This document shows, in pieces, positions 7,995 through 11,216 of a DNA stretch of 64,000 bases. The notes beneath the pieces were generated by a model. The model ran no database searches and was not told the origin of the DNA. It was given only the letters and a program-made list of their open reading frames with translations. Within the stretch, counting starts at the first letter, position 1, and every line of letters begins with the position of its first letter. A program made the translations under genes and the position numbers. Origin of the DNA: Halarcobacter sp. (GTDB taxonomy: Bacteria; Campylobacterota; Campylobacteria; Campylobacterales; Arcobacteraceae); assembly GCA_050296315.1 (NCBI GenBank), contig JBNKRE010000006.1, positions 89,760-153,759 on the forward strand, given 5' to 3'.

Positions 7995-8183
7995 ATGTTT
8001 TTTAATCTTTTTAAAAAAAAGAAGTATATTAAGATGAAACTTCCAAAATATGTATGTAAACATTGTAAATATACTTGCAAAAATTGTGATATGCTTTTTT
8101 GTTATTCTTGTCATATGAATGAAGCTAACCCTTGTCCTAAATGTGGAAAAAGAAATATTGACTATCAAAAAAATGATTCTTAG
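7995..8183 (+). CDS. 62-aa Cys-rich putative metal-binding microprotein (4 CxxC)
   Basis: CKHC-x3-CKNC-x4-CYSC-x7-CPKC; AGGGG RBS; dedicated promoter. Confidence 0.75.
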   Translation: MFFNLFKKKKYIKMKLPKYVCKHCKYTCKNCDMLFCYSCHMNEANPCPKCGKRNIDYQKNDS

Positions 8184-8881
8184 TAATCAAAATTTCTATA
8201 CTTGATTTTAAAACTATACTTATTGTCAAATTCTCTAAAAAACTCTTTAGTTATAGAATTTTTAGGAATATTTGATAAAGTAGGAACAGAATTTAAACAT
8301 TTTTGAATATAGTAAGTTTTCGTGTATTTATATTTTTGTAAAACTTCTAAAATCTCATTTATATCATTTTTTGAAAAAAGTGAATTATGGTATGTAGTTC
8401 TTACTTCAAAATCCAAATTTGAATCTATTAATAGTTTTAAACTCTCAACAACTTTTTCATACTCTTTGTTTTTTGTAATTTTAAAAAAGTTTGTTTTAGA
8501 GGTTTTAAAATCCAATGCAATAAAATCTAATAAATTGTTTTTTATAAGCTTTTCTAAAACTTGTGGTTTGAGACCATTTGTATCAAGTTTTATTTTAAAA
8601 TCCATTGATTTTATATATTTACAAATATCATATATCTCTTTATTTAAAGTTGGCTCTCCACCTGATAAAACTACACCTTTTAGAAGATTTTCTCTTTGTT
8701 TCAAAAAAGGGATTAGTTGTTCAAAACTATATTTGCCTTTTTTTAAAACAATATCAGGATTATGGCAATAATCACACCTCATATTACAACCGTTAAACCA
8801 GATAATACAAGATGGATATTGCTCAAAATCCAGAAGAGTAAAAGGGGCTAAACTATCAATTATCTTTTTTTTGCTCCACAA
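8180..8881 (-). CDS. nrdG: Anaerobic ribonucleotide reductase activating radical-SAM enzyme
   Basis: GCNMRCDYCHN CxxxCxxC, GVVLSGGEPT, KLDTNG; downstream of nrdD; TTG start uncertain. Confidence 0.92.
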   Translation of the reverse strand: MWSKKKIIDSLAPFTLLDFEQYPSCIIWFNGCNMRCDYCHNPDIVLKKGKYSFEQLIPFLKQRENLLKGVVLSGGEPTLNKEIYDICKYIKSMDFKIKLDTNGLKPQVLEKLIKNNLLDFIALDFKTSKTNFFKITKNKEYEKVVESLKLLIDSNLDFEVRTTYHNSLFSKNDINEILEVLQKYKYTKTYYIQKCLNSVPTLSNIPKNSITKEFFREFDNKYSFKIKYRNFDY

Positions 8882-8996
8882 AATATACCCTTTGTTTATG
8901 TTCAGCTTTTTTTCCTATATTAAAACTCTCAACTGGTCTATGATAACCCATAACTCTAGTATAAACAATACATTTTGTTCTCTTTTTTTCTTCCAT
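8856..8996 (-). CDS. 46-aa stand-alone NrdD C-terminal glycyl-radical domain
   Basis: MEEKKRTKCIVYTRVMGYHRPVESFNIGKKAEHKQRVYF...; RVxGY glycyl-radical motif; own RBS (TAAGGAG, 6 nt before ATG) overlapping the nrdD stop. Confidence 0.88.
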   Translation of the reverse strand: MEEKKRTKCIVYTRVMGYHRPVESFNIGKKAEHKQRVYFVEQKKDN

Positions 8997-9006
8997 CTTA
9001 TTCTCC

Positions 9007-11103
9007 TTAGGCAGATTTTGTATTGTGTTGAATCTCTTCATCACATTTTGGGCAATATTCATGCTCCCCATTTAAATAACCATGAACTGGACAAATTGAA
9101 AATAAAGGTGTCAAAGTTATATATGGTAATTTAAAATTTTCAAGAACTGTTTTTAAAAATAGTTTTGTAGATTCTGTTGAACTTAGTTTTTCACTCATAT
9201 ATAGATGCAGTACCGTTCCACCTGTATATTTAGTTTGTAAAATATCTTGTTTTTGTAAGGCTTCAAATGGATCATCTGTAAAATCAACTGGTAGTTGAGA
9301 AGAGTTTGTATAGTAGATTTCATTATCAAATCCAGCTTGAAGAATATCTGGATATCTTTTTTTATCCTCTTTTGCAAATCTATATGTCGTACCTTCTGCT
9401 GGTGTTGCTTCAAGGTTATACAAATTTCCACTTTTTTCTTGAAAAGATGTGATTTTTTCTCTTATGAAATCTAAAATTTCAGAAGAGAACTCTATGCCAT
9501 AATCACTTGTAATATCTTCTTGGTCATTGGTAAAATTTCTTATCATCTCATTTATACCATTTACACCAATAGTTGAGAAGTGGTTATTAAAACTTTTTAA
9601 ATATCGTTTTGTATATGGATATAAGCCTTGTTCAAATAGTTTGTTTATAATAACTCTTTTTTTCTCCAAGGTATTAAATGAAAGCTCTAAAAGTTTATTT
9701 AATTCATCATATAGTTTTTGTTTATTGTTTTTATATAAGTATCCAAGTCGTGCCATATTTATAGTAACCACTCCAATACTTCCTGTCATCTCAGCACTTC
9801 CAAATAAACCATTTCCTCTTTTTAACAATTCTCTTAAATCTAGTTGTAATCTACAACACATACTTCGTACAGCTCCTGGCTTATATGCATTTGGATTTTC
9901 TACTTTTTCTCCTTGTTCATTTGTCATATATTGACTTCCTACAAAGTTTTGAAAATAGCTTGAACCAATTTTTGCACTATTTTCTAAAAGAATATCTACA
10001 TTTTCTCCATCCCAATCAAAATCTTCAGTTATATTTACTGTGGGAATAGGGAAGGTAAAGGGTTGTCCATTTTTGTCCCCGTGGGTCATAATCTCATAAA
10101 AGGCTTTGTTTATTAGATTCATCTCTTTTTGAAAATGTTTAAAAGTCAATTCAGTTAATTTATTTACCCCTTTGTCTTTTAGTTTTTCTTTTATGTTTTC
10201 ATTCTCTTCAAATTGTTCAAATAGATGTTTATCGTTGTATGTTGGAAACTGCTCTTTTAAATCTGATGGTACATTCCAATCAAGTGTGATATTTGTAAAT
10301 GGACTTTGTCCCCATCTTGATGGAACATTTAGATTATAAATAAAACTAGTAAGTGCTTTTTTAACCTCTTTATATGATAAATCATCCATAAAAACATAAG
10401 GTGCCAAATAGGTATCAAAAGAGCTAAAAGCTTGTGCTCCAGCCCATTCGCTTTGTAAAATACCTAAAAAATTTGCCATTTGACTAAGAGCTTGTCTAAA
10501 ATGTTTTGCAGCTTTGCTTTCTACTCTTCCTCTTACTCCGTTAAACCCTTCATTTAATAATTGTCTTAAACTCCAACCTGCACAATATCCAGTAAGACAA
10601 TCTAAATCATGAATATGGATATCTCCATTTCTATGGGCAACTCCTTCTTTAACATCATAAACTTTATCAAGCCAATAGTTTGCGATAACTTTTCCTGCAA
10701 GATTGTTTACAAGTCCAGAGTTTGAGTAACCAGTGTTTGCATTTGCATTTATTCTCCAGTCATTTTTATTTATATACTCTTCTACACTTTTAGTTGAATC
10801 AACAAAAGTTGTATCTTGGTTGAGTCCTAGTATATGTTCCCTTTGCATCTTATGCAAAAATCTATATGTAATAAATGATTTCATTACACTAAAATATCTA
10901 TACTCAAACAATGATTTTTCAATATAATCTTGAATATCTTCCACATTATGATTTTTATTTTCATGTAAGTTTTGTATTACTGAAACAAAGATTATTTTAT
11001 TGTAAGTAATCTCTACACTTCTAAATGCTTTTTTTATAGCATCCTCTATTTTATAAGCTTTAAATGGTTCTTTTGAACCATCTCTTTTTATTACAAAATC
11101 CAT
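9007..11103 (-). CDS. nrdD: Class III (anaerobic) ribonucleoside-triphosphate reductase, lacking the C-terminal glycyl-radical loop
   Basis: N-terminal ATP cone (VIKRDG), IHIHDLD, GYCAGWS, SMCCRL finger loop, YNLEATPAEG, C-terminal CPVHGY..YCPKC; no RxxGY. Confidence 0.95.
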   Translation of the reverse strand: MDFVIKRDGSKEPFKAYKIEDAIKKAFRSVEITYNKIIFVSVIQNLHENKNHNVEDIQDYIEKSLFEYRYFSVMKSFITYRFLHKMQREHILGLNQDTTFVDSTKSVEEYINKNDWRINANANTGYSNSGLVNNLAGKVIANYWLDKVYDVKEGVAHRNGDIHIHDLDCLTGYCAGWSLRQLLNEGFNGVRGRVESKAAKHFRQALSQMANFLGILQSEWAGAQAFSSFDTYLAPYVFMDDLSYKEVKKALTSFIYNLNVPSRWGQSPFTNITLDWNVPSDLKEQFPTYNDKHLFEQFEENENIKEKLKDKGVNKLTELTFKHFQKEMNLINKAFYEIMTHGDKNGQPFTFPIPTVNITEDFDWDGENVDILLENSAKIGSSYFQNFVGSQYMTNEQGEKVENPNAYKPGAVRSMCCRLQLDLRELLKRGNGLFGSAEMTGSIGVVTINMARLGYLYKNNKQKLYDELNKLLELSFNTLEKKRVIINKLFEQGLYPYTKRYLKSFNNHFSTIGVNGINEMIRNFTNDQEDITSDYGIEFSSEILDFIREKITSFQEKSGNLYNLEATPAEGTTYRFAKEDKKRYPDILQAGFDNEIYYTNSSQLPVDFTDDPFEALQKQDILQTKYTGGTVLHLYMSEKLSSTESTKLFLKTVLENFKLPYITLTPLFSICPVHGYLNGEHEYCPKCDEEIQHNTKSA

Positions 11104-11160: not shown

Positions 11161-11174
11161 ATGACTAGGGTCAA
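11161..11174 (-). promoter_or_regulatory. Nss/FNR-type box (1 mismatch) upstream of nrdD
   Basis: ATGACTAGGGTCAA; -10 TACAAT at 11133-11138 (minus), 22 nt away. Confidence 0.75.
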
Positions 11175-11202: not shown

Positions 11203-11216
11203 TTGATGTATGTCAA
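11203..11216 (+). promoter_or_regulatory. Nss/FNR-type box upstream of moaA
   Basis: TTGATGTATGTCAA; TAAAAT at 11239-11244, 22 nt away. Confidence 0.8.

Follow-up and report, generated by a model that had tools for sequence, protein, structure and literature searches.

The DNA analysed here, called the window throughout, is a 64,000-nucleotide stretch from Halarcobacter sp. (Arcobacteraceae, Campylobacterota; contig JBNKRE010000006.1, positions 89,760 to 153,759), whose source genome is rated 100% complete and comprises 221 contigs. Its minus strand carries, in this order, nrdD, an open reading frame (ORF) of 46 codons and nrdG, a class III (anaerobic) ribonucleotide reductase (RNR) locus in which the catalytic chain lacks the glycyl-radical loop and the small ORF appears to supply it. 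An earlier note on this sequence had described the anatomy of the locus (a 698-amino acid nrdD, a ribosome-binding site, the 46-residue ORF and nrdG), and its description proved correct in every detail. The features, in window coordinates, are as follows:

9007..11103, minus strand: nrdD body, class III RNR catalytic subunit without a glycyl-radical loop, 698 amino acids (ORF list, Pfam, NCBIfam); stop codon TAA at 9009..9007
10849..11097, minus strand: ATP-cone, the allosteric activity domain, residues 3–85 (PF03477, E = 5e-18)
9847..9864, minus strand: finger-loop motif SMCCRL, residues 414–419 (HMMER alignment to P. copri NrdD, 8P23)
9043..9093, minus strand: metal site CPVH...CPKC, residues 671–687, the zinc ribbon that normally precedes the Gly loop (sequence)
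8997..9009, minus strand: junction, with the nrdD stop TAA overlapping the Shine-Dalgarno sequence AAGGAG, followed by the 6-nt spacer AATAAG (sequence)
8856..8996, minus strand: small ORF, 46 amino acids plus TGA stop, apparent separately encoded glycyl-radical subunit (Pfam, NF006126, conservation, and the ratio of nonsynonymous to synonymous substitution rates, dN/dS)
8946..8948, minus strand: GGT codon of Gly17 in YTRVMGYHRP, predicted radical site (sequence; invariant in a 16-protein alignment)
8180..8881, minus strand: nrdG, radical-SAM activase of the NrdG2 type (TIGR02495, Radical_SAM, Fer4_12); the TTG start at 8881 is uncertain

The nrdD body matches the family model NF006126 at 1066 bits (cut-off 548) over profile positions 4–652 of 684, and PF13597 (NRDD) with E = 4e-159. 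In the HMMER alignment it covers residues 8–704 of the 743 in P. copri NrdD and ends at the start of the P. copri Gly loop. The same alignment pairs the second Cys of SMCC(416)RL with Cys416 of the P. copri enzyme, and Cys174 of LTGYC(174)AGW with Cys171, which serve there as the radical initiator and the second active-site Cys, respectively (PMC11226230). The chain closes with CPVHGYLNGEHEYCPKC-DEEIQHNTKSA*, so that its stop falls 11 residues after CPKC, the last element of a C-x2-H...C-x2-C zinc pattern that is common to split and fused NrdD relatives. A sequence scan of all 698 residues found no R-x-x-G-Y motif, the nearest approach being RLGY at 452–455, within the barrel.

At the junction the DNA reads GCC TAA GGAG AATAAG ATG, and no promoter-like or terminator-like site was found between nrdD and the small ORF. 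The latter lies in frame +1 relative to nrdD, and its translation, MEEKKRTKCIVYTRVMGYHRPVESFNIGKKAEHKQRVYFVEQKKDN, covers positions 649–682 of 684 in NF006126 and 531–562 of 562 in Pfam NRDD, above the Pfam cut-off. Because the two coverages of NF006126 are complementary (4–652 for the body, 649–682 for the peptide), the small ORF is exactly the piece that the body lacks, in agreement with the proposal of the earlier note that it represents the normal NrdD C-terminus (a phmmer search of PDB sequences with the 46-residue peptide, a query too short alone, gave no match even at E = 10). Directly downstream, nrdG matches TIGR02495 (NrdG2) at 201 bits (cut-off 131) and, if it starts at TTG 8881, shares 26 nt (8856–8881) with the end of the small ORF. 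Relatives' nrdG also seems to begin inside or just after the peptide gene. All three genes may be translationally coupled.

A census of the source genome returned one NRDD body, one peptide gene and, anywhere in the genome, no match to the PFL-type Gly_radical domain PF01228. The peptide is thus the only possible radical site for the reductase and the only recognisable substrate of NrdG, which marks it as a regular subunit rather than a spare. Judged by its sequence, the 698-residue chain alone is an incomplete member of class III, and it is the pair of body and peptide that makes up the member.

Taken together, we consider it probable (at roughly 85%) that nrdD, the 46-codon ORF and nrdG form a single operon for an obligate two-subunit class III RNR, whose radical subunit acts in trans. 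The 698-residue body would supply the ATP-cone, the zinc ribbon and the barrel that houses the catalytic cysteines, while the 46-residue protein, presumably translated on its own from the AAGGAG-N6-ATG that overlaps the nrdD stop, an arrangement expected to give translational coupling, would be the regular and only glycyl-radical subunit. The peptide would bind non-covalently, with its β-hairpin inserted in the barrel much like the fused domain of a one-piece NrdD, and NrdG, together with S-adenosylmethionine, would abstract a hydrogen from Gly17, either on the free peptide or on a bound peptide that has flipped out. The radical would then move to the finger-loop cysteine, after which catalysis would proceed as in canonical NrdD. 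An activase can place a glycyl radical on a substrate this small, since the activating enzyme of pyruvate formate-lyase (PFL-AE) activates a 7-mer (PMC13450708).

For a structural view of the assembly, an AlphaFold2 (AF2) model was computed from a 61-row alignment for an in-frame relative (L029, an Arcobacteraceae metagenome-assembled genome; body 77% and peptide 83% identical to those of the window), with the intervening TAA read through as glutamine. The model has a mean predicted local distance difference test score (pLDDT) of 82.8 (73–86 in the loop region) and a predicted template modelling score (pTM) of 0.79, and its best fold matches, at template modelling (TM) scores of about 0.7, are solved structures of class III enzymes, those of S. 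thermophilus, P. copri, T. maritima and phage T4. The Gly sits at the tip of a β-hairpin, between strands 721–726 and 729–732, and the tail of the body and the lead of the peptide form short helices (685–697 and 706–712). The model is weakly suggestive of a canonical docking of the loop, with which it is compatible.

Several points weigh against the two-subunit interpretation. The modelled molecule is an artificially joined single chain, and its alignment contains fused homologues, both of which bias it towards the canonical fold. The peptide may also bind differently in the window lineage: most relatives' peptides begin with an E-I-L-x-K helix that is missing there (8984–8996, compared with loci L003–L028), and the window peptide, with only four residues before KRTKC, is the shortest version among those compared, so that the lineage appears to have lost the peptide's lead. 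Finally, the start of nrdG is uncertain.

The arrangement is far from unique to this genome. A check proposed by the earlier note, a search for the same split elsewhere, recovered the peptide by six-frame search in 32 of 41 related genomes, including 24 of 25 from the same genus, always as an open frame of 49–72 amino acids, and in 198 of 401 genomes across an even sample of the phylum (39 of 64 genera), where, among the matches listed, every peptide lies in an open frame of 48–115 amino acids or behind an in-frame stop after nrdD. Such recurrence of a short open frame is far beyond chance. A scan of one genome per species, queried with an alignment of 16 of the small proteins, gave at least 571 matching stretches, and the best 80 of these from named genomes are all split, with none fused. 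They include Campylobacterota (Arcobacter, Aliarcobacter, Poseidonibacter, Malaciobacter, Sulfuricurvum and uncultured Campylobacter), Bacteroidota (Algoriphagus, Flavobacterium, Pedobacter, Parapedobacter, Niabella and Saprospiraceae) and one Balneolaceae genome; complete genomes are included among those with the split. In the protein database, 2382 clusters of such small proteins (25–80 amino acids) were found, and, as the earlier note had guessed, some are already annotated automatically: several entries of 54 amino acids are named 'anaerobic ribonucleoside-triphosphate reductase' by NCBI. The split layout is thus a real one, which recurs in hundreds of species and in some phages.

In some relatives the two genes have come apart altogether. 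One genome of the same order (G129) holds a single nrdD body of 699 amino acids among unrelated genes and with no adjoining peptide, while a gene for a 52-residue peptide immediately precedes nrdG at a distance of 95 kb from the body; here the peptide stays with the activase gene and not with the body. Two more lone peptide genes of this genome lie in two related prophages, beside tail-fibre and tail-assembly-chaperone genes, and elsewhere in its genus there are genomes with one body and with three or four matches to the peptide that lie on different contigs or at distances above 100 kb. Among the viral contigs in IMG/VR, 64 (L109–L172) encode a close relative of the peptide (48–84% identical) as a short stand-alone ORF, with endolysin/amidase and reverse transcriptase genes among its neighbours; nrdD lies within 3 kb in only two of the 64 and nrdG in only one, leaving 62 with no nrdD nearby. 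Only a peptide acting in trans, as the earlier note had suggested, makes sense of these unlinked, prophage and viral layouts, and together with the conservation across two phyla they support the view that it is an orthologue of the normal NrdD C-terminus that must act as a separate molecule.

One-piece NrdD proteins also occur among the close relatives. These chains of 728–751 amino acids carry a near-identical loop right behind the zinc site, as in Arcticibacter (CPDCEDTKCLVYTRVMGYHRPVESFNIGKKGEH) and Chitinophaga silvisoli (CPVCEDERQKCLVYTRVMGY), and the one of 751 residues (P0272) has a long linker, CPQCDELILLENENDGQGRQRLLLQEEGKRTKCLVYTRVMGY, which resembles a split junction joined up and may represent a re-fusion or an intermediate. 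Split bodies have gained a short acidic tail (CDEEIL...), and the peptide has usually also gained the E-I-L-x-K lead. To follow the trait, a FastTree phylogeny of 130 NrdD bodies was built after cutting them at the zinc site, so that being split or fused does not drive the tree; the method is a quick one, and the sample, picked by C-terminal similarity, is biased. This tree requires 8 changes between the two states, where shuffled labels require 31, and well-supported branches force at least 5 of the 8. Three times in the tight clade to which the window belongs, a fused group is sister to a split one. The picture that these sequences suggest is one of repeated and easy interconversion, by fusion and fission, at a single linker. 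Chitinophaga is fused, and Algoriphagus and Flavobacterium are split; all three are aerobic genera. With the states interleaved and both of them present in aerobic genera, the change looks more nearly neutral than linked to lifestyle.

Two further observations concern relatives of the NrdD body. Many of the closest NrdD cluster representatives (within P0121–P0270) are 1000–1750 amino acids long and match the 698-residue query in three to five separate stretches, which suggests one to several large insertions, possibly inteins. Eight NrdD relatives (P0146, P0150, P0155, P0159, P0183, P0187, P0253 and P0255) are without a Gly loop and end, as judged by eye, in a thioredoxin- or glutaredoxin-like segment (...QAPTLVV...); by the same judgement, they would carry a reductant domain fused at the usual place of the radical loop.

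Oxygen cleaves glycyl-radical enzymes at the radical glycine, and the split invites a more ambitious proposal, which would add to the two-subunit interpretation rather than replace it and the core of which, a replaceable carrier that makes oxygen damage cheap to repair for a microaerophile, came from the earlier note: the peptide would be an exchangeable radical cartridge, charged by NrdG off the enzyme and swapped, so that cleavage by oxygen would cost only a 5-kDa piece, fresh peptide would restore activity, and extra or phage-borne copies would serve as spares. The layouts described above lend it some appeal, as the genes can be unlinked with the peptide travelling with nrdG rather than with the body, some genomes of the order hold two to three peptide genes per body, two of them inside prophages, and 62 of the 64 peptide-encoding viral contigs lack nrdD within 3 kb; pyruvate formate-lyase, with GrcA, also offers a precedent (PMC13450708). 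Against this, the window genome has a single copy tightly coupled to nrdD, and the narrow clade shows at least 5 changes between split and fused, with both states in aerobic genera of Bacteroidota. Such changes argue for an easy and nearly neutral interconversion and so weaken the idea of cheap repair after oxygen damage, for which reason we regard the proposal as tentative and, on balance, unlikely, and treat the oxygen-repair rationale for the split as a hypothesis. Its most extended form seems less likely still, namely that in a large share of bacteria the radical resides on a free, exchangeable cartridge of 5–7 kDa, charged off the enzyme by NrdG and renewed after oxygen damage, and that phages and prophages bring copies to keep up or boost deoxynucleoside triphosphate (dNTP) synthesis by the host body. 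If true, the cartridge would be the first spare part, or radical carrier acting in trans, of any glycyl radical enzyme other than pyruvate formate-lyase; according to a 2026 review, spare parts are known only for formate lyases (PMC13450708).

The two-subunit interpretation, with or without exchange, presupposes that the small ORF is translated by itself. A programmed frameshift or stop read-through could instead make a one-piece NrdD, and in the window a +1 shift near the stop would indeed fuse the frames, the small frame being open for 25 codons upstream of its ATG. Across relatives, however, the frame of the small ORF relative to nrdD is 0, +1 or +2, all three stop codons occur, and the spacing ranges from a 38-nt overlap to a 155-nt gap; in the closest relative both ORFs share a frame with one TAA between them, and the window genome has one extra spacer base. 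Separate initiation fits all of these layouts, and no single frameshift or read-through mechanism fits them jointly; nor is there a slippery site common to relatives, and in G129 a shift would have to bridge genes that lie 95 kb apart. Every small ORF has its own ATG (with a single GTG among the 80 loci), and in Campylobacterota, where a Shine-Dalgarno sequence and start codon are kept before each of them, AAGGAG lies 5–9 nt upstream, often within the end of nrdD and with an ATGA stop/start overlap, a combination that is a classic sign of translational coupling. The Bacteroidota loci are without AAGGAG, which fits the weak use of Shine-Dalgarno sites in that phylum. We therefore regard recoding as very improbable.

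An artefact or a decaying gene is more improbable still. Frameshift errors are frequent enough in draft assemblies in general, and this one is in 221 contigs, but that is all that speaks for a sequencing or assembly error. The same split is present in hundreds of genomes, complete ones among them, and independently assembled contigs from three wastewater metagenomes span the junction with substitutions and no gaps. Strong purifying selection acts on both pieces, and the peptide core has a median pairwise dN/dS of about 0.05 (34-codon core, 28 loci, with synonymous sites near saturation); 24 positions, Y12-T-R-V-M-G17-Y-H-R-P21 among them, do not vary across 16 diverse small proteins. The body reaches 1066 bits against its family model. 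The recurrence, the metagenome contigs and the selection refute an error or a pseudogene for practical purposes. The earlier note had argued from the clean ribosome-binding site that the split is genuine, which is now borne out by the separate starts, the occurrence in two phyla, the variable frames and gaps, the dN/dS value and the unlinked genes; as to the refuting case that it had named, relatives that are all fused together with an indel at this position, 32 of 41 related genomes have the split and the metagenome contigs are free of indels at the junction.

That a split intein joins the two pieces after translation has a negligible chance of being correct, as the possible inteins in the long NrdD relatives and the Cys9 that precedes the loop are outweighed by a body tail of 11 residues after the zinc site and a peptide lead of 4 before KRTKC (far too short for intein halves), by Pfam matches to the ATP-cone and NRDD only, with no intein or Hint domain, by the lack of a conserved His-Asn ahead of the Cys, and by the presence of the same Cys in the ordinary linker of fused relatives.

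The surroundings of the locus offer some hints about its control. A pattern search placed one further feature upstream of nrdD:

11161..11174, strand not assigned: FNR/Crp-like box ATGACTAGGGTCAA, one mismatch to TTGA-N6-TCAA, about 60 nt upstream of nrdD

By its position this box is a possible, weakly indicated site of low-oxygen control, as boxes with one mismatch are not enriched in the window as a whole (89 found against 84.7 expected from shuffles). Of the 12 perfect TTGA-N6-TCAA boxes, 9 cluster between 3343 and 15888, within the window's first 16 kb, and one of them, at 11203, lies between nrdD and the divergent moaA, farther from nrdD than the copy with one mismatch; the cluster fits an FNR/Crp-type low-oxygen control of the region. 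At the other end, a 62-residue ORF with four CxxC motifs (7995–8183, plus strand) is convergent to nrdG and overlaps the nrdG stop by 4 nt.

The split described here is a variant of a known enzyme, widespread and already annotated automatically, of which the window offers a clean and minimal instance. It would correct the annotation of thousands of ORFs of 45–80 amino acids named 'anaerobic ribonucleoside-triphosphate reductase', which would be real subunits, and of the neighbouring 700-residue nrdD genes, which would not be truncated; on that view, the copies that occur alone in phages would represent a new type of auxiliary metabolic gene. In glycyl radical enzymes the radical glycine is buried in the barrel, yet the activase must reach it, and it has long been asked how the Gly domain moves out of the barrel and back in. 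A natural enzyme with a separate 46-residue radical loop would make this question of activase access directly testable, and Arcobacteraceae include cultivable members. Full-text searches, with subscription-only literature outside their reach, found no publication on a split class III RNR; the matches to 'split' concerned class II NrdJa/b, phage introns or phylogenetic splits.

Compared with canonical one-piece NrdD/NrdG systems (phage T4, 1H78/1HK8; T. maritima, 4COI/4U3E; P. copri, 8P23; family models NF006126 and TIGR02487), the window pair has the same complement of parts, namely an ATP-cone, a ten-stranded barrel, a finger-loop cysteine, a zinc ribbon, an R-V-x-G-Y loop and an adjacent nrdG, and matches the same family model. 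In P. copri NrdD the zinc site and Gly711 belong to one C-terminal domain, residues 676–739 (PMC11226230). In contrast, the break in the window chain falls after the zinc ribbon and ahead of the Gly loop, which is a 46-residue protein with its own start.

The peptide resembles GrcA (YfiD) of E. coli in being a small, free-standing glycyl-radical loop protein. GrcA, with about 127 amino acids, belongs to PF01228 and serves as a backup for an enzyme already equipped with a loop, whereas the window peptide has 46, matches PF13597 only and not PF01228, and is the only loop available. The cognate activase activates GrcA, which inserts in trans into the large body of a glycyl radical enzyme (PMC13450708). 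The analogy with GrcA drawn by the earlier note is therefore helpful for how the peptide may work and fails for what it is, the peptide being the only loop in the genome and not a spare. A GrcA-type spare was rejected as an identification, given that the sole NRDD body is without a loop, the peptide gene is single and there is no intact partner enzyme.

Phage nrdD genes can also be found in more than one annotated piece, as in T4, where nrdD has group I introns, and in Aeromonas phage phiAS4 (PMC3653736). There, however, splicing of the intron restores a single chain, or the break lies elsewhere in the gene and is unexplained, whereas the split in the window has no intervening element, a single conserved cut site and a dedicated start codon. 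The nearest precedent for an RNR catalytic subunit encoded by two genes is the split class II enzyme NrdJa/NrdJb of Pseudomonas aeruginosa and Thermus phage phiYS40, in which the subunit likewise occupies two consecutive ORFs and a C-terminal functional module resides on the second chain (PMC4520616; PMC9669993; PMC3653736). The two systems differ in that NrdJa/NrdJb belongs to the B12 class, and NrdJb, a folded domain that has zinc-finger and IscU-like parts and bears the reducing cysteines, is not a 5-kDa radical carrier.

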